From: Bdellovibrionales bacterium
Lineage (GTDB): Bacteria > Bdellovibrionota > Bdellovibrionia > Bdellovibrionales > Bdellovibrionaceae
Direction: 5' to 3'
Assembly: GCA_031370005.1 (NCBI GenBank)
Contig: JANMPT010000110.1
Coordinates: 32,001-96,000 of the forward strand
DNA: 64,000 nucleotides
Shown: in pieces, positions 43,141 through 57,854 of the stretch
Numbering within the stretch: position 1 is the first letter of the stretch
Layout: every line of letters begins with the position of its first letter
Translations under genes and position numbers: made by a program
The notes under the pieces: generated by a model
The model's input: the letters and a program-made list of their open reading frames with translations, nothing else
Databases searched by the model: none
What the model was told of the DNA's origin: nothing

Positions 43141-44399
43141 CAGACCTGACCGGAAGATTCCCAATAATTTCATGACGTAAAACCGGCAGCAGGACTGGGG
43201 TTCCAACGACATCCGGGCGGTGCCCCGCTGTCTGCAAGGATTCTGTGATTTAGATCGGTTCGGATTGACCGCAGCAGCTGCCAGAGGGTCCCCTCAAAAC
43301 GATCCAGGATTTTCTTAAGCTGTAAAAGCAACTGAACCAGAACTGCGACGGCCAGTTGGGTCTTGATCGAGTTTGGTGTTTTTGTTGGCAGCCGACGGAT
43401 GTTCAGGTGTCCCTTCAACCAGCGGAACAATAATTCCACCGCCCACCTTCGTTTGTAAATTCCTGCAATCATTTTTGCACTGGACTTGAAGTCGGATGTT
43501 ATAAAATGAAAAATCTTTTTTGTAAGTGGATCTCTATAAATCACGTGCCGGAGCTCCTCTGGTTTTTCTTTGAACGGAGTGTAGGGGCCGTCATACAAAA
43601 ATCCATCTTTATCTTTCTGAACCTGCAGTACTTTCATCAACATCATGCGAAGTCTGGGGTGATCTTTCAGGCGAGTGACAAAGTGGGATCTTGCACTCAT
43701 AATTTTTTGCCAAAAATTAAAGTCATTATAAGCCCGGTCAAAGACGTAGGTCTTTCCCGGTAATAGCCGCAGATCAAGGCTTACCGGGGAATCGTTTCTT
43801 CTTCCCGGCGTGACTATAAAATCATCAATCCACTCACCATCAACGTTCCAAACAACGTGAAGTTTTGCCGAGGCCTGATGCTCATCTTTACAATGTTTTT
43901 GCCTCCACCCCGGCTCATTAAAGAGACTCCCATGGACTTTGATTTCCGTAGAATCGATAGCCATAATTTGCCGGATTGCTTTTTTAATTTTTCGACACTC
44001 AGTCTTGGCTCTGATTTCTAACAAAATCATGTCGCACAGTTCCTGGAAAAACCCAAATGCTCTTTCTCGAAGTGCATCACCAAAAGTTGAGTCTGGGATT
44101 TTAAGGGTAGCTTCGACTTCGCGAAAAGATTCGATTCTCATCACAAAACAGCAAATCAAAGCCTGGGTCATTTCCCAGGTTGAAAAGCTTTGGACCCACT
44201 TATCCATGTCCCACTTTTTTACCAGCGCGTTGAATTTTTTTTGATCAATCAATTGAAATAGAGAACGCCCTTTGAGAGAATTCTTCACGGTTGCCGCCTT
44301 CCTTAGCGTTTTAATTTTTTCTTCGCAGATAAATCAAAACAGCTAGGTGAAGGTCTGGCAACTTCTTGTTTTTACTTCAAAATCTTCCGGTCAGGTCTG
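43141..44399 (-). mobile_element. Complete IS4-family insertion sequence (1259 bp)
   Basis: Perfect 19-bp IRs CAGACCTGACCGGAAGATT (43141-43159, 44381-44399); 9-bp TSD CTGGGTATT (43132-43140, 44400-44408). Confidence 0.95.
43170..44288 (-). CDS. IS4-family DDE transposase
   Basis: AIDST, KLHV, VFDRAY, YKRRWAVELLFRWLK. Confidence 0.95.
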   Translation of the reverse strand: MKNSLKGRSLFQLIDQKKFNALVKKWDMDKWVQSFSTWEMTQALICCFVMRIESFREVEATLKIPDSTFGDALRERAFGFFQELCDMILLEIRAKTECRKIKKAIRQIMAIDSTEIKVHGSLFNEPGWRQKHCKDEHQASAKLHVVWNVDGEWIDDFIVTPGRRNDSPVSLDLRLLPGKTYVFDRAYNDFNFWQKIMSARSHFVTRLKDHPRLRMMLMKVLQVQKDKDGFLYDGPYTPFKEKPEELRHVIYRDPLTKKIFHFITSDFKSSAKMIAGIYKRRWAVELLFRWLKGHLNIRRLPTKTPNSIKTQLAVAVLVQLLLQLKKILDRFEGTLWQLLRSIRTDLNHRILADSGAPPGCRWNPSPAAGFTS

Positions 44400-44406
44400 C
44401 TGGGTA

Positions 44407-44435
44407 TTGACAATACGACATATATGTCGTATAAC
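44407..44435 (+). promoter_or_regulatory. Sigma70 promoter with a 20-bp palindromic operator
   Basis: TTGACA-N17-TATAAC; ATACGACATATATGTCGTAT at 44413-44432. Confidence 0.8.
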
Positions 44436-44442
44436 GAAAGAG

Positions 44443-44745
44443 ATGAAATTTAAAGATTTTCAGGGACGTGAGATTATTTTATCAGAAGAGTCTTGGGGTC
44501 ATATTCAAGACTCTCACCCGGAGGTCTCTGTCGAGGAAATCGCGAAAGTTTTGGCGGAGCCAGATGAAGTGCGCAAAAGTAATCATTCCGCAAACGTGGA
44601 GCTGTATTATGTATTTAAGACTCCGGTTCCAAAGCTACGTTACCGCTGTGTAGTTGTTAAAGTTCTTCAATAGGCGTGTTTTGTTTCTTCAGCGATGACC
44701 ACAAGTAGTATGAAAAACGGTGTGATTTTATACAGAAAATCTTAG
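44443..44745 (+). pseudogene. RelE/BECR-fold-like toxin with an in-frame TAG at 44671-44673
   Basis: MKFKDFQGREIILSEESWGHIQDSHPE...VLAEPDEVRKS...VVVKVLQ*ACFVSSAMTTSSMKNGVILYRKS*. Confidence 0.65.
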
Positions 44746-44753
44746 AGGTGTTT

Positions 44754-45143
44754 ATGAATATCACGTATGACAAAGATATAGATTATATGGAGATCTTTTT
44801 TAGTAAGGAAGAAAACTATGGGGATGAGTTAAATGATACTTGTATGGTTTTTAAGTCTGAAAAGACTGATGTGATTATAGGCTATGCTTTTGAGAACGCA
44901 AGCCAAAGCGTTTTTGAGGCCGAGTTTTTACATTTAACTACGAAGCTTGCGGCTATGCTAAAGATGGTCCGGGCTCTTGAAAATCTGACTCAAGAAGAAG
45001 CTGCAAAGAGGATTGGGGATATTACTCTCCGTCATTATCAGCGTTTAGAGGCAGGCGAGGATACGACCTTAGAAACGCTTGAACGAATTACCTTAGCGTT
45101 TCCAGGGCAGGACTTTTCAAAGATGTTTAAGAGGACTGCATAG
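44754..45143 (+). CDS. DUF2283-like domain fused to XRE HTH (antitoxin)
   Basis: ITYDKDIDYMEIFF...IIGY N-domain; LKMVRALENLTQEEAA...YQRLEAG HTH. Confidence 0.75.
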   Translation: MNITYDKDIDYMEIFFSKEENYGDELNDTCMVFKSEKTDVIIGYAFENASQSVFEAEFLHLTTKLAAMLKMVRALENLTQEEAAKRIGDITLRHYQRLEAGEDTTLETLERITLAFPGQDFSKMFKRTA

Positions 45144-45287
45144 TAAAGAACCTGCAGCTATTCACAAAATCGCTCAGAAATTCGGTAAGCGCGGACTTGA
45201 ACTTGCGAGCCTCATCCAAGTTCTCGCAGGCAATAAGTTTCGTAAGGCAAATTAAGTAACCAACCACCTTATCCCGCCCCTAAAATG

Positions 45288-45315
45288 AAAAAGCCCTGAT
45301 TTTAATTCAGGGCTT
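45288..45315. terminator. Hairpin between convergent genes
   Basis: aagccctga...tcagggctt. Confidence 0.5.
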
Positions 45316-45358
45316 AGATGATTATTCTATATCTCGAAAACCAGTGTTAAAAAAATGG

Positions 45359-45622
45359 CTAGTTAGCGTGTGTAGAAAAAGATCTGGAGCTTTTAGGAAA
45401 GGCATGAAGCAATCCAATGATTGCAAAAATATTAATAAGCGCAATGATAAGTAAGCTCTGAGTGTCAACGGCGAGTTTTATGGTCAATAAGATTACATTT
45501 ATATACAAATACGCACGTGAAAGCAGAAGACCAAATTTCACAAAAATGTTTTGTCCAAATGGCAAAAACCATGCGCAAAGTAACACCACTCCGCAAACGC
45601 CAATTAAAAGCAGCGAGCCCAA
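45359..45622 (-). pseudogene. Membrane-protein fragment
   Basis: Three hydrophobic segments; no convincing start. Confidence 0.35.
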
Positions 45623-45695
45623 GGATACCCAGTACGCGTCCTCTTACTCTCAGAATCAGTAAGAATTACTCCATTAAAGGTTTCTCTTAGTTTTT

Positions 45696-46061
45696 TCAAT
45701 TGAGTTTCTCGGCGAGGAAAACTTCCTTGGGCGCGAACCCAGTCGTACCACTTATGATACCGTTCGTGGTTGCGATGGCGCATTGCGCACAGGTTTGAGG
45801 GGCTTTTGTAGGGGGATCAATCTTGGTTTTTTTCCGAAGACGATAGCGGCGCTGGGCCTGTTTGTGATTCTCAGAACCACACTGCGTATTACGGTATGTC
45901 TTTTGGTTTCGGCGATGTCGTTCCTTCCGAGCTTCGTCGGAGCATCCGTCTGAACAATACTTTTGATTCCGCCAACAAGAACGGCAAATCAATAAAATCT
46001 TCGAACAGCGAGGACATTGAACTTCAATGGCAGGCATAGCCTCGGCATTTAATAATTCCAT
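45696..46061 (-). CDS. Cys-rich zinc-finger protein with basic tail
   Basis: CPRC...ICRSCWRNQKYCSDGC...RHRRNQKTYR. Confidence 0.7.
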   Translation of the reverse strand: MELLNAEAMPAIEVQCPRCSKILLICRSCWRNQKYCSDGCSDEARKERHRRNQKTYRNTQCGSENHKQAQRRYRLRKKTKIDPPTKAPQTCAQCAIATTNGIISGTTGFAPKEVFLAEKLN

Positions 46062-46084
46062 ACAATAATGCTAAAAAAATTTCC

Positions 46085-46170
46085 CTGGTCCCTCAAACAC
46101 CGGCATTAATAACTGGACAATGGGACCGGGAAAACGCCCGAAGTGGTCCCTCTCGAAACCGGTGCGTGCA
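46085..46170 (-). mobile_element. Possible IS21-like element end
   Basis: Minus strand starts TG at 46170; repeated tggtccct...ccgg near 46086 and 46144; cuts the adjacent HTH ORF. Confidence 0.4.
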
Positions 46171-46379
46171 GGTCAATTGAAAAATCAGGTTTGACGGTCA
46201 ATGAGATTGTTAAGAAATCTCAAATAGCTAGATCCAAAGTTTCGGCAATTAAAAACGGAGCCTTGTCAGGAATTTCAAGTGATCTCTTTTTTAAAGTTAT
46301 TTCGGCTTGCGGATGGAAAGTAGTTATTAATTTAAAAAAAGATTCGGTAAAAGCGAAAAAAATTAACCAGCCGAAATAA
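46171..46379 (+). pseudogene. 5'-truncated XRE HTH gene
   Basis: IEKSGLTVNEIVKKSQIARSKVSAIKNG...ISSDLFFKVISACG. Confidence 0.55.
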
Positions 46380-46388
46380 TAAAACTTA

Positions 46389-47516
46389 CTATTTACTTGG
46401 TTTCTTTTTAACAACTAGGGCATCAAACGCTTTTTTATTTTTAAAGAATTTGTATTTCCCGGCCCGCTCTTCTATAAGAATTCCCATCAAGGCAAGGGCT
46501 CTTAAGTATTTCGCACATGTTTGCCAATGAATACCAAGGTCGCGCTCCATAAATTTTGCATGAGTTATGGGATGAAGAAAAATATGATCTAGAACTGAAG
46601 AGATGTTGTTTTTACGAATCGGATTTTCTGTCAGGTTAAATAACTGCGTTTTAATTTCCTTCTTAGCATTTTTAAGTTGATAGATTCCGATTTGTGTTTT
46701 GTAGGCCTGTACCGCGAATCCTTGAAGCATGAATTCAATAAATGGCCACCATTCTCCTTTTGTAGTGACGTTGAGAAGAAGTGATTTATAAAGATCTTCA
46801 TGGTCGCTTAAGTAGCTGCTTATAAATAGTGCCGGATAATCTAGTAGATTTTCATGCAGAAGTTGAGCAATCATTAGGATGCGACCGCAGCGTCCATTGC
46901 CGTCTTCGAATGGATGGATAGCTTCAAATTGATAATGGCAAATAGCTACTTTAATGAGAGGAAAAAAAGTTTTATCGTTGAGGATAAATTTTTCCCAATT
47001 GCTAACTAGATCTTCAGTTTTTGTCCACTCTGGAGGGGTATAAATGACTTCGAAAGTGCCATCTTTTCTTTTATTTCCAATTTGATTCTGTACTTTCCTA
47101 AATTCGCCGGGGTTTCCTTTGTCGACATTTAATTTCAAATGAATTGCTTTTATGGTTCGAGAAGACAAGCCATATTTTTTCAAAGATACAGTGCCTTCAA
47201 GTAAAGCTTCTCTGTATTTCATCACTTCTTTATTTTCTTTAGTTCGTTCGTCGACAGGTTTTGTTTCGTCCACCAGTGCAGATATGATAGTAGTATGTAT
47301 GTTTTCGACGGCATTGCTGCTAATTGATTCATTCAAATAGAATGTTGAGAGAAATAATTGCGGACGTTCAATGTCGTCTAAGGCACCCGCTAATTTAGAA
47401 ATCGCCTGTAGTGCATCATTGTGAAGATTCATGAGTTTCAAAAGATCGGGGTGATCTGAAATAGAGAAGGGGGGTGGAAGGTATTTTAGATCGTATGGTG
47501 AGTTTGCGCGAAACAT
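46389..47516 (-). CDS. Fic family protein with Fic-N and C-terminal wHTH
   Basis: ESISSNAVENI; HYQFEAIHPFEDGNGRCGR. Confidence 0.92.
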   Translation of the reverse strand: MFRANSPYDLKYLPPPFSISDHPDLLKLMNLHNDALQAISKLAGALDDIERPQLFLSTFYLNESISSNAVENIHTTIISALVDETKPVDERTKENKEVMKYREALLEGTVSLKKYGLSSRTIKAIHLKLNVDKGNPGEFRKVQNQIGNKRKDGTFEVIYTPPEWTKTEDLVSNWEKFILNDKTFFPLIKVAICHYQFEAIHPFEDGNGRCGRILMIAQLLHENLLDYPALFISSYLSDHEDLYKSLLLNVTTKGEWWPFIEFMLQGFAVQAYKTQIGIYQLKNAKKEIKTQLFNLTENPIRKNNISSVLDHIFLHPITHAKFMERDLGIHWQTCAKYLRALALMGILIEERAGKYKFFKNKKAFDALVVKKKPSK

Positions 47517-47726
47517 ATCGAAAATCCTCGGGCTTATTTATATGTTCGCATGATATATCGTAAAATTCAATATTTTTCGATATATTGGAAATACATATCG
47601 AAAATAATCGATTTACACGTAAGATATTGATTTTAATAGTCATATTTGGCAATGAAAAACTATAAACCAACGGAAATCTCAATATGGAACAAATAATATC
47701 ATCGACATTTTGAAAGATACAGTAAG

Positions 47727-47993
47727 TTGTCACAGAAGGCGCTGGCGGCGCTCTTGAAAACCAGCCAGCAGCAGATTCAGCGTTGGGAAAAAGGACAGGC
47801 TGTAAACCTGCAATGGGCGGTAGTACTCGCTCGTGTTCTCGGTCAAAAGCCGGAAATCATTTTTCCTGCCTTCGAGAAGGTGAAATCCACTGTAGCGAAG
47901 ACGCGTACATCTAAAATGGATCCCGAGAAAATTGAAAGTGAACTACATAAAGCCGGATTTGAGACAGATGCCCCGACGTATTGGTATCGATAG
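47727..47993 (+). pseudogene. XRE HTH regulator, probably truncated
   Basis: SQKALAALLKTSQQQIQRWEKG. Confidence 0.55.
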
Positions 47994-48543
47994 GTTGGTC
48001 GCAACTCAGTCGGGGTTTAAGAACGGCTGTTTGGTTGATACCAATGTTTTAATATCTACAAGTTTGCCAATTGATCCAATGAATGAAGCCGCTGAGAGGC
48101 TTGTTGATAAACTCGCACATTTAAAGATTCCGTTATATTCAAATGTTAATATCCGCGCTGAATTTCTTGAGATACAGCGACGGCTTTTAATTCCAGAAGC
48201 ACTCATCGAGTTCTACGAAAGCCACGGCGACCTTGATGATGTTTTAACGGGAAAACTTCGTTCAATTCAGTCCAGTTATCGAAAATCTATAGATAATAAA
48301 AAGATCTATAAATTCACCGATGATCGAATAAAAGAATTCAGAACCTTGATGTCGAGTTATGAATTCAATGGCAAAAACGGCTGGCTTTTTTTCTGCGCGA
48401 AGTTCTTAGCACCACAGCTTGATATTGTCTGGGACGAAGTCGTACAGATCTGCAATCTCAATTTCATAAAGATTCGCGATGGTGACATTCAACATATGTC
48501 CGATTCGCTTCGAGCACAGGGTAAATTCGTGCTGGAGATATAG
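47994..48543 (+). CDS. PIN-domain-like protein, probably truncated; start uncertain
   Basis: CLVDTNVLIS and NIRAEFLE; the C-terminal PIN acidic motifs are not evident. Confidence 0.55.
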
Positions 48544-48591
48544 TAATGAGGCATTTTAAAGAAGTAGCAGAGAGTTGCTTGGAGATGGTTT

Positions 48592-48762
48592 ATGATTACA
48601 AGTGATAGACAGTTAAAAGTCACAAAAGAGAAGATTGAAAATTTTAAAGCCTCTCTTAAACAAAAGCCTAATGAGAAAATGAATCCTGTCTTGAAAAAAG
48701 CAGCACGAGTTCAAGCTTTAGACGAATTCGGTAAACATGTTCATTTATTGAAAACTCGCTGA
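48592..48762 (+). pseudogene. N-terminal fragment of an XRE/HigA-like regulator
   Basis: RBS ggag; MITSDRQLKVTKEKIENFKASL..., runs into antisense hsdS near 48715. Confidence 0.5.
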
Positions 48763-49744
48763 ATGGAAATCCGTCACCAAACATACTAACTTTGGGTTCA
48801 AACAAGCCAGGCTTTCCACCATCCTTATAAAGTAACACATCTCGATCTTTTACTTTGCCTCTATTTAGTGAGTTATGAAATTCCTCCGGGACATATTTTG
48901 TTTTAGAAAAATCAAAAAAACCTATTCTTACAATACTCTCGGCTCCAATATTGGGGATTCCATGAGTATATCCCGAAACGCCACCTTTAGGTCTATTGCC
49001 TGTTTCCAAAGCCGCAAGTAAATTTTCTAATTTTTCGTACTTCCATCCCTTCGGAATCAGCCCAAGTTCAGATTTTTCAAAGCTATCAGGAAAAAGTGCG
49101 GTGGTTTCATCATCCATCCCAAAAGGCTTTTTGCCTTCGGCTTTTGCTTTCACTGGTCCAAAATCGATGAACCATTCTTTAAAAATAGCTTTCGCCATTG
49201 ATTCAAGTGAATTGTTCATTTGGCTATTAAGCTCAATCTTGTCATTTAAAGATTTTGAGAGTTCGCCTATGAATTGTTGTTTCTCATCTGGAGGGCATGG
49301 GATCAGTAATTTATTTAGTACTTCGGTATCTAGTTTGCCAGCGCCAATTCCTGTAAATTCTACTTTTTCTAACAATTGTCTTTCGGAAGCAATAAGCCAT
49401 GCTAAAAAAAAGTCCGGTTGAATTTCTTTTGTCTTTAGCCTAAGTGCTTTTACATCTTGATTGATTGTAACATGTCTAGTTGGAACGGAGATTGGTATTC
49501 TCTGATGTAAAATGCTACCTCGAACAAGGAGCAGCGGAGTCCCTTTCTCAATAAATTTAATGCCAGACTCGGCGAGTGCCTTTTTGGTAATCTGTTCGGT
49601 AGATGAGCTGACATAAAGTTTATCCATTGAGCTTGCGCTGATCCAGGGTATGTCACCATCCCAAAAAGTCAACTCAGCTTTGGAAGGTGTTTTTCCTGAG
49701 ATCATCTGCACGGCGTCGCCAAATCGAATTGATTTAAAGCTCAT
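48668..49744 (-). pseudogene. hsdS: Type I RM specificity subunit, C-terminally truncated
   Basis: TRD1, spacer LNDKIELNSQMNNSLESMAKAIFKEWF, LGLIPKGW; TRD2 breaks after NEHVYRIR. Confidence 0.85.
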
Positions 49745-51383
49745 TCAATTTCTCCATGATGTTTTTCTGCAAAATGGCTGACACACTAAATTGGTTCTCC
49801 AATTTGACTTTTAGTGTATTAAATCGCTCATCAAATGGTGTCTCATCGTCAATCACGTCCTCTGCGCCAACATATCTCCTAGGAGTCAGAACCCAACCAT
49901 TCTTTTCTATTTCATCAATTTTTACAGCTTTACAGAAACCGGCCTTGTCTTCATAAGTGCCAGCCTCTTTTTCTCCGCGCCAAGAATGATAGAGACGGCT
50001 AACTTCCTTAATTTCCTCATCAGTAAGCTCCTTGCTTACTCTTGAAGTCATCGCTCCTAATTTTCGGCAGTCGATGAAAAGAACTTCTCCAGCGCGATCC
50101 CGGATTCCAGTTTGTTTTTTGTTACGAGTCAGAAACCAAAGACTAGCCGGAATCTGAGTTGTATAAAAAAGCTGCCCCGGAAGCGAAACGATGCAATCAA
50201 CAAGATTAGCTTCAACTAAGGCCTTGCGAATTTCACCCTCGTTTGATTGGTTCGAGCTTAGTGACCCATTGGCCAAAACTATTCCAGCAATTCCATTTGG
50301 AGAAAGGTGGTGGATCATGTGCTGAAGCCAAGCGTAGTTAGCATTCCCTGGCGAAGGAGTTCCATATTTCCAGCGAACGTCGTCTTTTATCCGCTCAGCC
50401 CCCCAGTCGCTAACATTAAAAGGTGGGTTTGCGAGGATGTAGTCGGCTTTTAGATCTTTATGTTGATCGTTATGAAATGTATCACCATTGGTTTCCCCTA
50501 GATTTCCATCAAGACCACGAATCGCAAGATTCATCTTAGCTAGTTTCCAAGTCGTAGGATTTGATTCCTGACCATATACAGAAAGTGCGCCACGTTTACC
50601 GCCGTGGGCCTCCAGAAATTTCTCAGACTGAACAAACATTCCACCGGAACCGCAACAAGGATCGTAGATACGTCCCTTTGTTGGTTCGATCATTTCAACC
50701 AGCAACTTAACGATACAACCGGGAGTATAGAACTGTCCGCCAAGCTTACCTTCAGCAGAAGCAAATTTTCCAAGAAAGTATTCATAGACTCGTCCGAGGA
50801 CGTCTTTTTCTTTATTGGCTTTATCACCTAAGCCAATGCCTGAAATTAAATCCACAAGCTGTCCAAGCATCATTTTATCGAGATCAGGTCGGGCATAGTC
50901 TTTTTGCAGAACTCCCTTAAGGGTTTTGTTCTCTTTTTCAATAGCAACCATGGCATCATCAATGAGCTTTCCGATTTCAGGCTTCTTTGCGCTGTTTTTA
51001 ATGAAATCCCATCGGGCTTGTTTTGGAACCCAGAAAATATTCTCTGCAACATATTCGTCGCGGTCTTCGGCAGCTTGCGGGTCTTCCTTGATCAGTGAGT
51101 TGTATTTCTCTTCAAAAGAGTCAGAAATGTATTTGAGGAACACAAGCCCGAGCACTGTGTGTTTGTAGACTGCAGCGTCCATATGGCCACGAAGTTTATC
51201 GGCGGCAGCCCACAACGTCTCTTCAAATCCAAGGCTGACGGTTTGCTTGGTCTTCTGGGTCTTAGGTGCTTTTGGCTCGGACTGAGCCTGAAGCTCAAGT
51301 TGATTTTTAATCTTTGAAGATTGCTTCCGCTTTTTTTTCAGAATCGTTTTAGCCGCTTTTCCAGGTGTTTTTTTCTTTGCCAT
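49734..51383 (-). CDS. hsdM: Type I RM methyltransferase subunit
   Basis: [33 protein letters not shown]. Confidence 0.96.
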
Positions 51384-51577
51384 AAGTGTAGGTATTACTG
51401 TTCGATGACCCTGAAATTCTATGGCTTTTAGCACTTTAAAACAAATTCAAACCGCACTCAATTTACATCTAAATTCATGGCGGAGCAGGTGGCACGCTGA
51501 GTTGTGCCTCTAATATGGGCAGATTGAGGCGAGCCTCCACTTTTTGATATTACCTAACGTATTTACCCGAAGGAATA

Positions 51578-51655
51578 GCTCTTAGGAGTTTACTGGTTTA
51601 GACGTATTGCCTTCTAAGCAACTGGTCGAAGGTTCAAATTCCCTTGGGAGTACTA
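51578..51655 (+). pseudogene. Degenerate tRNA-Arg(UCU)
   Basis: Anticodon arm ttgc-CTTCTAA-gcaa; GGTTCAAAT T-loop; wobble-paired acceptor gctctta/tgggagt; ends ACTA; D-arm broken. Confidence 0.65.
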
Positions 51656-51670
51656 ATTTCTGCGCAGATA

Positions 51671-51907
51671 CTACAATCCATCTAAAAGCTTCGACAAGGG
51701 CATTTTATAGAGCTTCGCTACTTTGCGGAGAGTGATAACCGTGATGTTTTTGCCGGATTCAATCTTTTGGAGGTGGGTCCAGTCGCCCCAGCCGTGTTCT
51801 TCGACCTCTTCCAATGTCCATCCCTTATCAGTACGTAAAGAGCGGATCCTAGTTCCTAGTTTAACCAAGAAGTTTTTATCATCAGGAGTAATACTGCTTG
51901 TTGCCAT
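51671..51907 (-). CDS. XRE-family HTH regulator
   Basis: KLGTRIRSLRTDKGWTLEEV...HLQKIESGKNIT. Confidence 0.85.
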   Translation of the reverse strand: MATSSITPDDKNFLVKLGTRIRSLRTDKGWTLEEVEEHGWGDWTHLQKIESGKNITVITLRKVAKLYKMPLSKLLDGL

Positions 51908-51924
51908 ATAAAAATGATTGCAAA

Positions 51925-51958
51925 TATGCACGATAATAAGTAAGAATGATCGTGCATA
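51925..51958. promoter_or_regulatory. 10-bp inverted-repeat operator between divergent genes
   Basis: TATGCACGAT-N14-ATCGTGCATA. Confidence 0.6.
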
Positions 51959-51982
51959 ATATGAAATGGGAAATATTAAATT

Positions 51983-52225
51983 ATGAAGTCAGGCAAGAGT
52001 AAGATCCAGCTACAGACAAAGTCTCCCACCGGTCGTAAAGAATCGCACGACTTGGTCCAGAGTCGCCTTTTAGATCTTCATTTTGAGCTGAGCGCTTATG
52101 GGTTCCTTTTTTCGAACTTAAAGAACTGTGAGCTTTGCGAGGATGATCTGTATGGAATGGGAGTTGTCTTCAATAAAATGGCAAAACGGGTGTCGAAGAT
52201 TTCAGAGGAAATCTCCTTAAGCTAA
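51983..52225 (+). CDS. Hypothetical helical protein
   Basis: 80-aa ORF divergent from the HTH gene. Confidence 0.5.
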   Translation: MKSGKSKIQLQTKSPTGRKESHDLVQSRLLDLHFELSAYGFLFSNLKNCELCEDDLYGMGVVFNKMAKRVSKISEEISLS

Positions 52226-52395
52226 TCCTGAGAGGCCAGCTGGAATAGCGTCCTGCTATTCACACAAAACAGCGATGGCAAAATCATAAGCTCCGTCACT
52301 TACGGCGTGCTGAGTAAATCATAAAGTTTTTTGTAGTTACTGTCCTTTTAAAGGTTTATTCGGGTGCCGATCCGTCAATTGCAGGTGACTATATT

Positions 52396-53364
52396 TCAAG
52401 GCAACTGTCTTGCAGTGGTGCGATTAAATTTATCCTTCAAACACTCTGGACACCAGCGACATTTTCGGATCAAAGCAACAGGGGCATTCCATTGATGCCC
52501 TTGAGCGCACTGAAATTTTGCAATTTTAAGATGATAATTTGGTCCTTCATAAATTTCTGAAAGACATTTGCCGCCCATCCGTTTTGCCAATTCATAAGTT
52601 GCCAGAATCGACTTTCTCATTTTTCCACAGGTCGGGCACCACTTCCCCCTACGAACATTGTGCAAGGCGGCTTTAAAACTATGCCCAAATTTGCATTCCA
52701 AAGAGTATTTCTCACCGGACCCGAGAATATGACCGGTCAGTAATTTCCCTCCGTGACCGCGCACCAACTCCTGCAATTCGTTTAAAGCCAACTCCTCATT
52801 GCAGGCCCGGCACCAAGTCTTGCTCCGAAGCAATGCCTTCAAATGCGACTGCCAGGTATGCCCATTTCTGCAAGCAGCCACAGCCTGATGTCTTTCGCCT
52901 TCAACTCTATTGACGACTCCGCTATGGGAGGAAGCAACGGCTTTAACCTTCTGAAATAGGAGGTTTGCCATTTTATTACTGTATTCATTTCGGCTGCATT
53001 TTCGACACCAATTTCCCTGTTGAACGCTGTTCGGTGATGCAAAAAAATGATGCTTGTTCCGACATTCCCATTCTAGCTTTTCACCACTGGTCAGAGAAAT
53101 TTTCGATACCAGCCGACCACCATTTATTTTGGCCATTTTTTGCATTTTTTCAATGCCATCACGTTTTTGCAGTCCGGCTTCTTTCATGGAGCACTTGCAA
53201 CACCACTGTCCGTTCTGAATGTGATGCCAGGCAGTCGACCACCGATGTCCTTTTTGACATTGCCATCGCAGGTGCTGTCGTGCATTGACGTAAGTCACAG
53301 AAAGGCACCGACCGCCCTTTTCGCGTGCCTTCTCTTTGCAGTCTTTGATCGTGTAGGTTTTCAT
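52396..53364 (-). CDS. Protein of five tandem zinc-ribbon repeats
   Basis: Five A..xGG...C..GH.W/F...WC..C units. Confidence 0.8.
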   Translation of the reverse strand: MKTYTIKDCKEKAREKGGRCLSVTYVNARQHLRWQCQKGHRWSTAWHHIQNGQWCCKCSMKEAGLQKRDGIEKMQKMAKINGGRLVSKISLTSGEKLEWECRNKHHFFASPNSVQQGNWCRKCSRNEYSNKMANLLFQKVKAVASSHSGVVNRVEGERHQAVAACRNGHTWQSHLKALLRSKTWCRACNEELALNELQELVRGHGGKLLTGHILGSGEKYSLECKFGHSFKAALHNVRRGKWCPTCGKMRKSILATYELAKRMGGKCLSEIYEGPNYHLKIAKFQCAQGHQWNAPVALIRKCRWCPECLKDKFNRTTARQLP

Positions 53365-53618
53365 TGCCTCTATTACAAATAAATATAATTTAAAACTCTA
53401 GAAAATTTAGTTTAAAACTGATGTTCTTTTCTTTGGTCTAGGGGGTTGACGGGGTGGACCAGGGAAAGGCCGAGGCTTTTTTGATCCTTAAGATCCGGTC
53501 TCGGATCAATGAGCAGAAAATAAGACTCAAGGTCGTCATAGAGTTCAAAAAGCACGAGCGAAGCGAAAAGTACCCTTGGGGCTTTGAGGTTGTCGAGCTG
53601 TCAGATGTTGTTATCTAA

Positions 53619-53972
53619 CTATAGTTTAAGTGAAAGGTGTCTTGCGAGAGCCTCATCGACTAATCGCATGTGCTCATCGGGCAATTTTCCAATTCTTTTC
53701 TGGAGTCGCTTTTTGTCGAAAGTTCTAACTTGGTGGACTTTGACCTTGCTGTTTTTTAGACCGGCAATGCCGTCGACGGAAACTTCATGGGGATATATTT
53801 TTTCCAGCTTTTGTGACGTAATTGGCACCACGCTAACTAGTGGTGAGAAGGTGTTAGCCACGTCATTTGAGACAATCACGCAGGGTCGCGTTTTTTGGAT
53901 TTCCGCACCAATGGTGGGGTCGAAGTTTGCCCAAAAGATATCGCCTCTTTTAATATTCGTCGTCAAGGCCAT
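53619..53972 (-). CDS. mazF: PemK/MazF family toxin
   Basis: KRGDIFWANFDPTIGAEIQKTRPCVIVSND...QVRTFDKKRL. Confidence 0.93.
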   Translation of the reverse strand: MALTTNIKRGDIFWANFDPTIGAEIQKTRPCVIVSNDVANTFSPLVSVVPITSQKLEKIYPHEVSVDGIAGLKNSKVKVHQVRTFDKKRLQKRIGKLPDEHMRLVDEALARHLSLKL

Positions 53973-54195
53973 CTCCAATAGTAGAATCAAGCTCGGCAGC
54001 AAGTTCGCTATCTTCCTTTGCCGTGGCCTTATAGCCTTCGATCATTTCTTGAATCAATGTGTTCTGAGACTTTCCAGCAAAGTACAGTTCCAGTGCCTCC
54101 GCAATCACGGCGGATCTTTCGCGTGGTTTAACCGACTTTCTCAGTTTCTTTGCAACCTTCTCCGGAAGGGAAATATTCATTCTAATTGCACCCAT
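53950..54195 (-). CDS. RHH antitoxin
   Basis: RMNISLP...RSAVIAEAL...MIEGY; overlaps the toxin start. Confidence 0.88.
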   Translation of the reverse strand: MGAIRMNISLPEKVAKKLRKSVKPRERSAVIAEALELYFAGKSQNTLIQEMIEGYKATAKEDSELAAELDSTIGDGLDDEY

Positions 54196-54671: not shown

Positions 54672-56360
54672 CTATAGTTTTAAAAATTTATCATTTTGTG
54701 AAAGAGTCAGGATCGTGTTGGATTCAACAAGCGAAAGATCAAAACCTTCAATCTTATCTTTTAAGATGGCCACTATATACTGACCGTCAACTCCATTTGC
54801 AATTTCAAACATTGTCTTCAGCTGGTTTACATGAATTTCTTCGAGCTTATCATGAAGTGCAAAACGAATAGTATTAGCAGCGAACTTGCTCAAGAATTCT
54901 AGGTAGGCCAAGTCGAACGCAGTTGTTTGTCCCTTCTTTTTTCCAGAACCAACATTCCCTTTTACGTTGTTAATTTTAAACCTATAAAAAGATCCGGCTT
55001 TTCCTTCGTGATCTTCAAATGACAAGACATACTGCTCGTCGTAGAGTTTTCTCGAAATCTCCGCAAAAATCAGATTGAATGCAGTTATTTTCTTTTCGAG
55101 GTCGGCTTCAAAGTCGGCAATTTGATCGTTAATTTGTGCAAGGTTGGAATTAATATCCTTAATGTTTTGAGTTAGCTCCTCTAGAGTTTTGATGAGAGAG
55201 AGCTTCTTGCCCTTTTCCTCGTGAAGAAGATTTAACTCTTTGTCTATTTTCTGAAGATCAGCCAGTGCCCCCTTGTGAGACAAACCTTTGAGCACTTCCT
55301 TCTCTTCGCCAATGTATTTATTCAGCTGCTTATCTCTTTGCTGGATTTCCGATTCAGTTGAAGATATGGATTTCTGAATAAAGCTAATTTTATTAGAGAT
55401 CATTGATTCGTGGAACTTGAGAACTTCCTCGAAAGATTTCTGTAGCTTGGGAATAGAAGATTTAGCTTCTTCATATAACGATTTTATAGTTTCAGGATTA
55501 ATGTTTCCACGAGATTTGCTCAGCTGTTCAATAGTTTGTAAATTTAGATTATATTTGATCCTCAATTTACTAATAGCAATCGACAATTCTGAAATATGCT
55601 TTCTCAATGATTCAAGCGCTTTAATTTCATTAGTTATGCTGTCTGTAAGTTCAAATTTTTCTTTCTTTCGCTCTTGCTCAGTAATGTTAGTGTCGATTAC
55701 AGCAAGCATCTGCTTGAGTGCCTCGTGCGAAAAGTCCTTTAATGCTAATTTTTGGATTGAAAGTCTTTTTCTGTCTCTTGTAAGAACGCTCTTCTGGGTT
55801 AAAAGATCCTGATCTTGAAAACCAAATAAATATAGGTAAACCGCTTCATATACGTCTTCAGGATTACTAGGATGCAAGAACTTGAGTGTATTACTCATTT
55901 CATGGTTATCGATCCGAATGAATTTTTTAATCAATTGCCTATATGATGGCTTACCTGTTTTTAAACCAAGTAAAATTCTTCCTAAATTAGATTTGAAATC
56001 TTCAAGATCAAGTCCAAACTCCTCACCGTTTATAGTAGGTTTCCGATCAAGGCCTCGCGTAATTACGTATTCGGTGCCTTTAACAGATTTTACAGTAAGT
56101 TTGAATTCAACACTATAGTTCTTAAGATAGTTATAAACCTGTTCATTCTTTGTCTTAAACTCAGGATCTGTGAAAATAGCGGTGCCGTCTGATCCCAGGC
56201 AGAAATCAATGGCTCTCAAAAACGTTGTTTTTCCGATGTCATTACCGGACTCAGTAGAGCGATTGGTTGTTACATCAAATACGAGATTCAATCCCTTTTT
56301 AAAGGTGATCTCTCTCACAACTCCGTTCTTATCTGATACAACGAGATTCTTTAAAAACAT
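54672..56360 (-). CDS. lmuB: Lamassu/ABC-3C SMC-like ATPase (DUF2326)
   Basis: ITFKKGLNLV, GNDIGKTT Walker A, long coiled coil, GSGKKKG signature, FALHD Walker B, GQYI. Confidence 0.88.
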   Translation of the reverse strand: MFLKNLVVSDKNGVVREITFKKGLNLVFDVTTNRSTESGNDIGKTTFLRAIDFCLGSDGTAIFTDPEFKTKNEQVYNYLKNYSVEFKLTVKSVKGTEYVITRGLDRKPTINGEEFGLDLEDFKSNLGRILLGLKTGKPSYRQLIKKFIRIDNHEMSNTLKFLHPSNPEDVYEAVYLYLFGFQDQDLLTQKSVLTRDRKRLSIQKLALKDFSHEALKQMLAVIDTNITEQERKKEKFELTDSITNEIKALESLRKHISELSIAISKLRIKYNLNLQTIEQLSKSRGNINPETIKSLYEEAKSSIPKLQKSFEEVLKFHESMISNKISFIQKSISSTESEIQQRDKQLNKYIGEEKEVLKGLSHKGALADLQKIDKELNLLHEEKGKKLSLIKTLEELTQNIKDINSNLAQINDQIADFEADLEKKITAFNLIFAEISRKLYDEQYVLSFEDHEGKAGSFYRFKINNVKGNVGSGKKKGQTTAFDLAYLEFLSKFAANTIRFALHDKLEEIHVNQLKTMFEIANGVDGQYIVAILKDKIEGFDLSLVESNTILTLSQNDKFLKL

Positions 56361-56605
56361 TTAATAATGTCACCCTTTTCGTCTAAGTTTATCTTGCCCA
56401 GCAAAAACAACCAGTCGAGTGTAAGCATAAAGTAATCATATGAAACCTTTGCGCCTGCCTCCACAGTGCCGTCATTTACAGCTCTGAAAAGTACATTGGG
56501 ATCAACCACGCCAAAATTTGACTCCATCAAAGCATGTATAACTTTTGCACCTAAGAAGTAGAGGCTTTTTGTCGGCTCATTATCTTGATCTATCAAAAGC
56601 GTCAT
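56351..56605 (-). CDS. lmuC: Lamassu/ABC-3C middle component
   Basis: 84 aa; P..SLYFLGA.VI...FMLTLDWLFLLGKI; overlaps both neighbours. Confidence 0.82.
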   Translation of the reverse strand: MTLLIDQDNEPTKSLYFLGAKVIHALMESNFGVVDPNVLFRAVNDGTVEAGAKVSYDYFMLTLDWLFLLGKINLDEKGDIIKCF

Positions 56606-57195
56606 TTGGCTGGCCTCTCCAAAATCTTGCAGTTGATAAAAGCATGGCAGGTCATCGCAATTGATGAAAAATCCAAGTCTTCCTGACTAATACTCACCGA
56701 ATTAGAATTCGACAGATCTTTTTTTACTTCGTTTGCAACTCTCTCAATAATAGTGTCAGCATTTTGGCGAATTATGTCTAGGGGTGTAGTCGTTGAAGAT
56801 TGGCTCTTAAGGACATCACCCTTTATTCGGTCATATCGAGCTTTAAAATTTCGTAGAACTTTAGAGCGTGCTCCAGGACGATGATTGTCTAACTCCTTGT
56901 AGGCTTCATCAATTGCAGCTCCATATTGACCATAATCTTCAATCCAGTGTTTATAGGCCTGCAGGTTATTGTGAGAAATTTTATCTTCGATCGTGTAGGG
57001 TTCATTCGTTTGAGGGACCTGATTAGACACATTTCCAGCGTCGATAATGTCATTCAGCTTAGGAATAAGATCAGCCAAAATACTTGGTAACTTACTAACA
57101 TTTTCCTGGGTTATCGTAATATCCCCACCCGCAGTGATATTATTATTTCCGCTAACTTTTTGCTTAATAGGTCCGGCAGGATTATTTTTTGCCAT
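56602..57195 (-). CDS. lmuA: Lamassu LmuA: ABC-3C C-terminal domain plus short N-terminal G/N-rich motif, no enzymatic domain
   Basis: YTIEDKISHNNL...HAFINCKILERP; RBS ggag before ATG 57195; QKVSGNNNITAGGDI at residues 12-26. Confidence 0.8.
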   Translation of the reverse strand: MAKNNPAGPIKQKVSGNNNITAGGDITITQENVSKLPSILADLIPKLNDIIDAGNVSNQVPQTNEPYTIEDKISHNNLQAYKHWIEDYGQYGAAIDEAYKELDNHRPGARSKVLRNFKARYDRIKGDVLKSQSSTTTPLDIIRQNADTIIERVANEVKKDLSNSNSVSISQEDLDFSSIAMTCHAFINCKILERPAK

Positions 57196-57358
57196 AATCT
57201 CCACCAACGGTGGTATTGCCGTCGCCTTTCACTTTTTGATTGGTTTTGTTAAAGCTGTTTTTTATGCTAAAAACTTGAGAGGCAACAACAAGTGAGACAA
57301 CCAGAGAAAGAATTGAGCAAATGCTTGCAGTCAAATTTATTGTTTCTAATGTTGTCAT
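57182..57358 (-). CDS. 58-aa single-TM micro-protein with a C-terminal motif matching the LmuA N-terminus
   Basis: RBS ggggga; MTTLETINLTASICSILSLVVSLVVASQVFSIKNSFNKTNQKVKGDGNTTVGGDYGKK*; 14-nt overlap with lmuA. Confidence 0.8.
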   Translation of the reverse strand: MTTLETINLTASICSILSLVVSLVVASQVFSIKNSFNKTNQKVKGDGNTTVGGDYGKK

Positions 57359-57405
57359 GGTTCCCCCAACGATCTAGTTATCTAAATCGATCCAATATTA
57401 TGGCC

Positions 57406-57675
57406 TCATATGTTTTCATTTAGTCTATTTGAAATTTTGAATAATGCATCATTTGCGAGTTTCTTTAGCCGCATCACTTCCAACTGATTCTCAAAATTTT
57501 TATCAATGTAATGGATCAACTCTAAAAAGTCGTGCGGATCGATGCTCAAGACACCTTTGTTGATCTCTGGGCTTGAAAATCTCATTGGACATTTTTTAAG
57601 GAATTTTTCGAGGGCGGAGGAGACGAAGGGTATTTGAGTGTCGCGAAGTTTGATTTTTATCTCTTTCACGATCAA
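57406..57675 (-). CDS. Hypothetical protein
   Basis: TTG start after gaagga; 89 aa. Confidence 0.5.
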   Translation of the reverse strand: MIVKEIKIKLRDTQIPFVSSALEKFLKKCPMRFSSPEINKGVLSIDPHDFLELIHYIDKNFENQLEVMRLKKLANDALFKISNRLNENI

Positions 57676-57777
57676 ATTTTCCTTCTACAGTTCTACAAGA
57701 TCTCCACTCCAAAGAGGTTCGAATTTTAAATTTCGTCGTACTTTCAGTTGCTTACCAATTTCATTTTGTAGAAAAAA

Positions 57778-57854
<77 letters not shown>

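Follow-up and report, generated by a model that had tools for sequence, protein, structure and literature searches.

A candidate split-effector short Lamassu system in which a headless LmuA and a membrane micro-protein carry matching terminal motifs

The locus described here raises the question of how a Lamassu system might act on its host when its LmuA protein has no enzymatic head. It lies in a 64,000-nucleotide (nt) stretch of a Bdellovibrionales bacterium genome (GenBank assembly GCA_031370005.1, contig JANMPT010000110.1, positions 32,001 to 96,000 of the forward strand), hereafter the window, to whose whole length all positions refer. Four overlapping genes at 54672–57358, all on the minus strand, encode a membrane micro-protein, an LmuA-family protein that we call the adaptor, LmuC and an LmuB-like ATPase, and the micro-protein and the adaptor carry similar motifs rich in glycine (G) and asparagine (N). 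We consider this operon best explained, with somewhat better than even confidence, as a split-effector short Lamassu (ABC-3C) anti-phage system with a motif-coupled membrane micro-effector. Our confidence differs between the parts of this reading: it is high for the architecture, a split-effector Lamassu with matched terminal tags, and for the functional coupling of the tagged proteins; the micro-protein is likely to be the effector; and the chances that the tags form a self-templating amyloid are about even.

The initial annotation described four overlapping minus-strand genes including a 58-residue transmembrane open reading frame (ORF), and ORF coordinates, overlaps and hydropathy agree with that description. 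The ORFs overlap head to tail by 14, 4 and 10 nt. The most upstream one (57182..57358) encodes a 58-residue protein that begins with a short N-terminus, continues through a single hydrophobic helix and a lysine-rich linker, and ends in a G/N-rich motif. Sequence and hydropathy place a predicted transmembrane helix at about residues 9–30 (57269..57334, minus strand), with a 17-residue Kyte-Doolittle (KD) maximum of 2.44. There is no lysine or arginine before the helix and several lysines follow it, so the tail is predicted to face the cytoplasm, where the adaptor is. The micro-protein matched no Pfam or NCBIfam family, HetE-N included, and gave a single weak PADLOC match, to the helix of a reverse transcriptase (RT)-associated SLATT model (E 0.0022). 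Promoter and terminator scans at the operon scored no better than shuffled sequence.

The three downstream genes form a recognizable Lamassu core. The adaptor gene (56602..57195, minus strand) encodes 197 residues that match Pfam PF20275 (CTD10) above cut-off (E 2.6e-11); its ATG start was chosen because a 75%-identical homologue (P0002) has the same start. In an AlphaFold2 (AF2) model built from a 60-sequence alignment (mean pLDDT 85.6), residues 1–38 are non-helical and residues 39–187 form a helical domain, giving a motif peptide of about 38 residues in coil conformation followed by a helical CTD10. By Pfam and the AF2 model, only these roughly 38 non-helical residues precede CTD10 and the enzymatic head of LmuA is absent, which makes the system a variant and not a canonical member of type II (short) Lamassu. 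The name lmuA given initially therefore holds for the family, by way of CTD10, and fails for the N-terminal effector domain: the protein is a headless LmuA. When the CTD10 model was submitted to a VIA structural search, the top two rows were both LmuA C-terminal domains (CTDs), namely 9nxx_A (Z 7.1, root-mean-square deviation (rmsd) 4.2, 130 aligned residues, chain residues 238–383) and 9hqx_A of Salmonella LmuACB (Z 6.9, rmsd 3.8, 120 aligned, residues 260–399), followed by RhoGAP domains at Z 5.2. Foldseek with the same model returned nothing at E <= 0.001, the top row being 9a6c_B of a YydD-YydB model (E 0.14), and a CTD10 profile searched against the PDB gave rows at chance level only.

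The second core gene (56351..56605, minus strand) overlaps both of its neighbours and encodes LmuC, an 84-residue ABC-3C middle component 6 protein (Pfam PF20293 MC6, E 7.5e-17, above cut-off). The third (54672..56360, minus strand) encodes a 562-residue LmuB-like ABC ATPase of the SMC/Rad50 type, matched by PADLOC models PDC-M68B (1.1e-43) and LmuB (2e-20) and by Pfam DUF2326 (7.5e-16). Its Walker A motif reads GNDIGKTT, no CxxC hook was seen in the sequence, and LmuB had no sequence match in the PDB at E <= 0.01. Of the PDC-M68 candidate system only the B component was matched, the other three proteins matching no PDC-M68 model at E <= 0.01. An LmuB-like ATPase, an LmuC encoded between A and B and an LmuA CTD, the features of type II (short) Lamassu or ABC-3C systems, were all found. 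The initial labels lmuC and lmuB and the assignment to ABC-3C thus have the backing of PADLOC and Pfam hidden Markov models and of the structural match of CTD10.

The two copies of the shared motif are QKVKGDGNTTVGGDY, in the tail of the micro-protein (57194..57238, minus strand), and QKVSGNNNITAGGDI, at the N-terminus of LmuA (57118..57162, minus strand). Direct comparison reproduced the reported identity of 9 of 15 residues; 29 of the 45 bases are also identical. Among the nine common residues the codon is the same in five and different in four, as the remark that several of them use different codons had implied. Local alignment of the window tail, taken as the last 40 residues of the micro-protein, with the first 70 residues of the CTD10 ORF scored 53, a value reached by none of 1000 shuffles of that tail (mean 23.4, standard deviation 4.6, maximum 46). 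A loose regular expression describing the motif, run on the 3.2-Mb genome in all six frames, matched only the two window copies, a result that is partly circular because the pattern was built from these same copies.

Searching 1.84 billion representatives with HMMER identified 359 CTD10 relatives at E <= 0.001, and no CTD10 relative was found in the phage records searched. We examined 153 CTD10 proteins, comprising the best 150 of the 359 and those of another search, with that of the window included. Most (142) are 165–230 residues long, seven are longer and four are shorter. Nearly all of the short proteins start with a peptide rich in G, N and glutamine (Q): residues 4–28 contain at least 28% of these three in 116 of the 142 short representatives, compared with 13% on average over the remainder of the protein. 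In these adaptor N-terminal peptides G is enriched 3.4-fold and N and Q each 2.5-fold, and leucine (0.52-fold), lysine (0.56-fold) and proline (0.74-fold) are depleted. The peptide sequences vary widely across the family, with rough classes visible. The longer relatives carry other heads in this position, either HNH-like (a weak match), Mrr-like (weak) or SMEK_N (1e-41).

To follow the pairing through the family we assembled 40 loci, 14 from reference genomes, 25 from metagenomes and that of the window. One is a fragment (L013), two have no upstream DNA (L028, L038) and five encode fused-head proteins, which leaves 32 in which the CTD10 protein is short and the DNA upstream of it can be read. 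In every one of these 32, a small neighbouring ORF on the same strand has a predicted tail that matches the N-terminus of its own adaptor. The initial annotation had named as damaging to its proposal the case in which CTD-only LmuA loci lack an upstream motif-bearing ORF; in every comparable locus the ORF is there. The end of the partner ORF lies between 47 nt into the CTD10 ORF and 11 nt short of it. Four loci were read manually: L015, where the automatic start lay too far upstream, L004, L020/L021 and L022, of which the last shows only the partner tail, at a contig edge. None of the five fused-head loci (L005, L006, L011, L029, L031) has a partner ORF with a matching tail. A 41st locus (L041), on an annotated plasmid, has the same arrangement as the 32, its partner being annotated as hypothetical beside middle component 6 and DUF2326 genes. 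Hosts of the loci include Myxococcus, Bdellovibrionales, Oligoflexia, Oceanobacter, Marinomonas, Pseudomonas, Candidatus Njordibacter, Sulfurospirillaceae and Clostridium. We set aside the possibility that a frameshift joins the micro-ORF to the adaptor gene, since in 19 non-redundant loci the junctions range between -47 and +11 nt and share no slippery site.

Tail and adaptor N-terminus are matched within a locus and differ between lineages, the co-variation of motifs for which the initial annotation proposed to test. Examples are the pairs of L002 (IKISVNGDDNTVSGRDI / IKIDVNGNTNTIAGRDI), L012 (STTVVSTGRGSVTV / GLTVVSTGSGGVTV) and L020 (QDNRGNNNKNAGNDFTDKS / QDNRGDNNKNALNDFTDNS). Shuffle tests (1000 each) on 22 loci, the 19 non-redundant ones together with L015, L020 and L004, showed the observed score reached at most once per 1000 in 20. 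In 15 of the 19 non-redundant pairs the adaptor scores highest with its cognate tail. Cognate scores are 50–71 in 16 of these pairs and 30, 36 and 37 in the other three, against a non-cognate mean of 26.3 (standard deviation 10.2, n=420, maximum 65), where the high values come from pairs of the same class. Partner genes of relatives gave dN/dS values of 0.07–0.34 in the 10 pairs with usable dS, and the partner ORFs are therefore real genes under purifying selection.

Several individual loci deserve mention. The operon of L020 (2777–5471; L021 reads the same) encodes a 66-residue membrane protein, a 196-residue CTD10 adaptor, an 83-residue MC6-like protein and a 551-residue ABC ATPase, and is complete only when TGA is read as glycine (code 25). 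Under table 11 every one of its genes is broken, and TGA-encoded glycines fall inside the shared G/N motif; a 510-residue ORF with an RT-like YRDD motif lies upstream of the operon. L002 and L003 lie about 215 kb apart in opposite orientation on one contig of a Bdellovibrionales metagenome-assembled genome, where the whole locus and its flanking genes occur in two copies of identical ORF sequence; this is due either to a large inverted duplication or to the assembly. In the Oligoflexia locus L004 (1658–2228) the adaptor gene is divided between two reading frames and the ABC gene contains a run of X/N; the contig is 4 kb long and poorly covered, and either a frameshift or a faulty assembly accounts for this. 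Variants of the window operon (54672–57700) with 90–99% similarity occur as short contig pieces in hot-spring and freshwater metagenomes of two other studies, with no single piece covering the whole operon; no RNA data set was listed as containing it. The Myxococcus adaptor of L001 (3947–4600) carries its motif in tandem at the N-terminus (QGIRGDHNQQ / QSIRGDNNQQ), an arrangement reminiscent of the pseudo-repeats reported in HET-s and in certain BASS motifs, except that here it lies on the sensor side.

The partners fall largely into three classes. One-helix partners of 45–78 residues occur in the window and in L001, L002/3, L004, L014, L015, L017, L018, L020/21 and L041; in all 10 of these single-helix proteins lysine and arginine, as read from the sequences, lie mainly after the helix, and that of L002/3 is short (KD 0.71). 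Two-helix partners of about 86–136 residues occur in L007–L010, L012, L019, L022–L027, L030 and L032–L035. Helical partners of 111–113 residues occur in L036, L037 and L039, and the 104-residue hydrophobic partner of L016 stands outside the three classes. For the helical partners the match to Pfam HetE-N passes its threshold (E 1.8e-12 to 2.5e-11) and that to NCBIfam GapS6a falls below cut-off. A profile of nine such HetE-N-type partners found the solved 'Babybass' chain 9h9v (hmmsearch E 6e-12), most likely the Bab domain structure of Ibarlosa et al. to judge by entry name and date. A model of a HetE-N-type partner (pLDDT 65, with a low-confidence tail) matched the same chain in Foldseek (37–38% identity, rmsd 2.4, probability 1.00) and in VIA (Z 8.6, rmsd 2.8, 82 of 85 residues; next row 5.8). 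The partners of L036, L037 and L039 are Babybass (Bab) homologues. Bab and its neighbour Agp are reported, in the available part of a preprint, to share a terminal motif that forms amyloid and on which abortive infection depends (bioRxiv 10.1101/2024.11.07.622273). GAPS6, from which the NCBIfam name GapS6a derives, is described as an anti-phage system of two genes that has been validated, the second gene encoding a protein with TPR and PINc domains. The analogy to amyloid signalling pairs drawn in the initial annotation has thereby gained independent support from three loci. An effector with a Bell-, HeLo- or Bab-type domain is found in these three relatives only and not in the window. The effector slot is modular: separate membrane partners, Bab-type domains and fused HNH-like, Mrr-like or SMEK_N heads interchange in it.

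Pairs of this kind also occur outside the CTD10 family. Four plasmid records gave a Bab/GapS6a-type match, and in the two that we examined, both Enterobacterales plasmids (L042, 4001–7684; L043, 4001–7095), HetE-N proteins (E 2.7e-24 and 1.5e-40) are encoded directly upstream of proteins of 1113 and 922 residues without a Pfam match. The N-termini of the large proteins repeat the tails of the small ones (HSGSGDNVGG / HSGSGDAVAG; HSGTGDNVGG / HTGTGHNVAG), and a peptide similar to HSGTGDN heads 10 of the 142 short CTD10 representatives. A search for Bab/GapS6a-type pairs with NF047935 found none in 2 genomes or in 401 genomes of one class, where the controls were also silent, and no phage record with such a pair.

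How the system might fire can be outlined from its relatives. Two preprints describe, in the parts available, an LmuA held monomeric by LmuB2-LmuC through its oligomerisation domain and forming a tetramer once liberated, and a third, likewise available in part, proposes CTD-driven oligomerisation as general for Lamassu. In fungal and bacterial amyloid pairs, NLR oligomerisation is thought to nucleate the amyloid fold, according to the accessible sections of that literature. We propose that LmuB and LmuC hold a headless LmuA that would consist of the CTD10 docking and oligomerisation domain and an N-terminal peptide of about 35 residues. The killing part would be separate and encoded just upstream, as a 58-residue inner-membrane protein whose cytoplasmic tail bears the LmuA motif. 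On sensing of foreign DNA LmuA would be freed and its CTD would oligomerise, if CTD10 behaves as in solved Lamassu. The oligomerised adaptor would cluster its N-terminal motifs and nucleate a beta-sheet assembly, most likely amyloid-like and self-templating as in BASS and HET-s, which would bind, capture and convert the matching micro-protein tails, the signal passing from adaptor to micro-protein. Clustered membrane helices may then damage the membrane and so cause abortive infection, from which we infer a candidate anti-phage activity. An amyloid mechanism is plausible by analogy, given the Bab homology of some partners and the features of the motif.

A number of observations weigh against this proposal. 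The system is known here from sequences and predicted models alone. The matched core of about 15–20 residues is at or below the 20–25 residues given for BASS motifs, and partner tails contain 10% lysine, whereas BASS motifs are described as lysine-depleted. Similarity between tail and adaptor N-terminus is weak in 2 of the 22 loci tested, L001 (score reached in 30 of 1000 shuffles) and L016 (42 of 1000). The micro-protein of the window has no detectable homology to Bell, Bab or HetE-N, and its helix is hydrophobic enough for constitutive membrane residence, so that killing by clustering is not readily explained. Finally, the VIA Z scores of the CTD10 model are middling for a helical domain, and the LmuA match therefore supports the Pfam call and is not proof of it.

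The same split architecture could instead operate with motifs that pair as ordinary stoichiometric beta-strands, acting as a small homotypic adaptor like the effector-associated domains and not as a self-propagating amyloid, the micro-protein serving as an anchor that keeps the Lamassu sensor at the inner membrane or as an effector held or released by simple binding. We regard this as unlikely, though deserving of serious attention. That a core protein and a stand-alone effector can be linked homotypically by a duplicated module is an accepted idea for bacterial conflict systems, as set out by Kaur et al. 2020 (PMC7159879), the motif is short and forms a coil in the monomer model, and present data do not separate templating from 1:1 binding. 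Against it, the composition and terminal placement of the motifs are as reported for amyloid signalling motifs, and in three loci the same slot is filled by homologues of Bab, for which amyloid templating is reported in the accessible text. If the micro-protein were purely an anchor, the system would be left without an effector, though sister systems have nuclease-like heads in the slot.

It is far less probable that the micro-ORF is real but encodes something other than an effector, such as a regulator, an immunity factor or the leftover of a gene split, the motif likeness then reflecting local duplication with no present interaction and the effector being missing or encoded elsewhere. The micro-protein of the window matches no curated family, and one preprint reports, within short Lamassu, a clade said to have 'seemingly lost the effector domain', and names no replacement. 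However, in each of three unrelated partner types (one-helix, two-helix and Bab-like) the tail fits the adaptor of its own locus, the motifs stay matched within a locus while differing between lineages, the partner genes are under purifying selection, and the two window copies are not a recent duplication because 16 of their 45 bases differ. That two low-complexity G/N-rich stretches resemble each other by chance beside a spurious small ORF is hardly credible: the stretches are short and biased in composition, but the recurrence of the arrangement in 32 of 32 comparable loci from several phyla, the composition-preserving shuffles, none of which in 1000 reached the observed score, and the absence of the motif pattern elsewhere in the genome contradict it.

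Read as a split-effector Lamassu with a motif-coupled effector, the window system combines two known kinds, a Lamassu sensor and, by analogy, an amyloid-type pair of effector and partner with matched tags. Among amyloid systems it resembles Bab/Agp of E. coli ECOR25 (BASS11), where, in the available part of the preprint (bioRxiv 10.1101/2024.11.07.622273), a small membrane-directed effector is likewise encoded just upstream of the sensor-side protein, a G/N-rich motif of about 20 residues likewise occupies the effector C-terminus and the partner N-terminus, and the setting is also anti-phage. Unlike Bab/Agp as described there, the present system involves a three-protein SMC-like Lamassu machine with the motif on an adaptor and not on the sensor itself, and the window effector is a bare 58-residue helix and tag without a Bab or Bell fold. 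The text of Ibarlosa et al. contains none of the words ABC, Lamassu, SMC and LmuB.

With the NLR/Bell BASS pairs of bacteria and the NWD2/HET-S pairs of fungi, as presented in a preprint by Dyrka et al. (bioRxiv 10.1101/2020.01.06.895854), the operon shares adjacent, collinear and often overlapping genes, G/N/Q bias, and a motif located at the C-terminus of the effector and at the N-terminus of its receptor-side partner. As reported there for BASS, fused 'all-in-one' relatives exist beside two-gene forms, here as CTD10 proteins bearing an HNH-like, Mrr-like or SMEK_N head, and in L001 the motif is repeated in tandem. The adaptor N-termini are also enriched in G/N/Q and depleted in leucine, lysine and proline, although the partner tails are lysine-rich and the matched core is short; the likeness to BASS is drawn from composition and placement. 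Unlike in BASS and NWD2 systems there is no NACHT/NB-ARC or TPR-GreAB-C-PIN receptor; the motif-bearing partner is the CTD10 adaptor of an ABC-3C system, and the window effector is not a Bell domain. BASS1-10 are, in that part of the preprint, motifs of multicellular Actinobacteria and Cyanobacteria, whereas the hosts here include unicellular bacteria and a code-25 lineage.

Among Lamassu systems, the operon resembles short type II members such as S. enterica LmuACB and V. cholerae DdmABC in its LmuA-LmuC-LmuB order, in its short LmuB (562 residues) and in a CTD fold nearest to the solved LmuA CTDs, and differs from canonical Lamassu in its missing LmuA enzymatic head. HNH and SMEK heads, which its sister systems carry, also appear in the list of short Lamassu in the available part of Haudiquet et al. 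(bioRxiv 10.1101/2025.04.02.646746). Clade O is the one said there to have seemingly lost the effector domain; the present CTD10 family probably is, or includes, Clade O, the two being compared by description only. The word 'transmembrane' does not occur in the text of that preprint. The LmuA heads named in the accessible parts of reviews and preprints are nuclease, protease, hydrolase, lipase, Sir2, TIR, FMO, HNH and SMEK, with no membrane or amyloid partner mentioned in those parts. Effector-associated domains (EADs) provide a further parallel, since in the available part of Kaur et al. 2020 (PMC7159879) a coupling module likewise sits on the core and on a stand-alone effector, with the same effectors fused elsewhere; EADs are described there as domains, some alpha-helical and Death-like, whereas here the module is a beta-prone peptide of 15–20 residues. 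The word ABC is absent from that text, and the words ABC, Lamassu and SMC are absent from the amyloid-signalling papers searched. The initial annotation knew of no amyloid signalling downstream of an SMC-like sensor, and within the literature searched we found no paper linking Lamassu or ABC-3C to amyloid or BASS motifs, although the paper defining ABC-3C (Krishnan et al. 2020) and preprint supplements could hold an earlier mention.

The operon is set in a defence island with a type I restriction-modification (R-M) system, Fic, a PemK toxin and a tRNA border, a setting from which protection against phages or plasmids is predicted only. Cargo beside the operon spans 43170–54195 and comprises a DDE transposase of the insertion-sequence type (43170–44288), a Fic protein (46389–47516), type I R-M HsdS and HsdM (48668–51434), a small helix-turn-helix protein (51671–51931), a 322-residue protein with a treble-clef zinc-finger (DUF4379) match (52396–53364) and a PemK/MazF toxin with an overlapping upstream gene of 81 residues (53619–54195). 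On the other side, a tRNA-Met found with ARAGORN (57778..57854, minus strand) borders the island and is not part of the system. Between it and the micro-ORF, on the same strand, lies an 89-residue ORF (57406–57675) with no family match and no counterpart seen in related loci. A search of 40 related genomes, of which 34 are of high quality, found the CTD10 adaptor in none. The tRNA-bordered island and this absence from relatives are typical of mobile defence cargo.

We suggest, at even confidence, that prion-like templating may be the general firing mode of one SMC-type Lamassu clade, in which the sole output of the headless adaptor would be an amyloid seed of about 15–20 residues that converts interchangeable effectors encoded in trans. 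If this is true, helix-and-tag effectors of 45–67 residues would be among the smallest regulated executioners of cell death known, the 'effector-less' Lamassu clade would be explained, and amyloid immune signalling would extend beyond NLR-type receptors and beyond multicellular bacteria, reaching Pseudomonadota, Bacillota, Myxococcota, Bdellovibrionota, Campylobacterota and a TGA=Gly lineage. For annotation, ORFs of 45–110 residues upstream of 'truncated' LmuA genes would count as functional parts of the system, and the matched tags would supply orthogonal pairs for tests of specificity. For the amyloid-signalling field, the system would add upstream sensors of a new class, greatly widen the range of hosts and supply a minimal effector suited to biophysics. 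The effector-less branch of Lamassu, which is among the commonest anti-phage families, would gain a concrete and testable killing mechanism, and short self-matching tags would be seen to wire an SMC-like DNA sensor to interchangeable, separately encoded death effectors.

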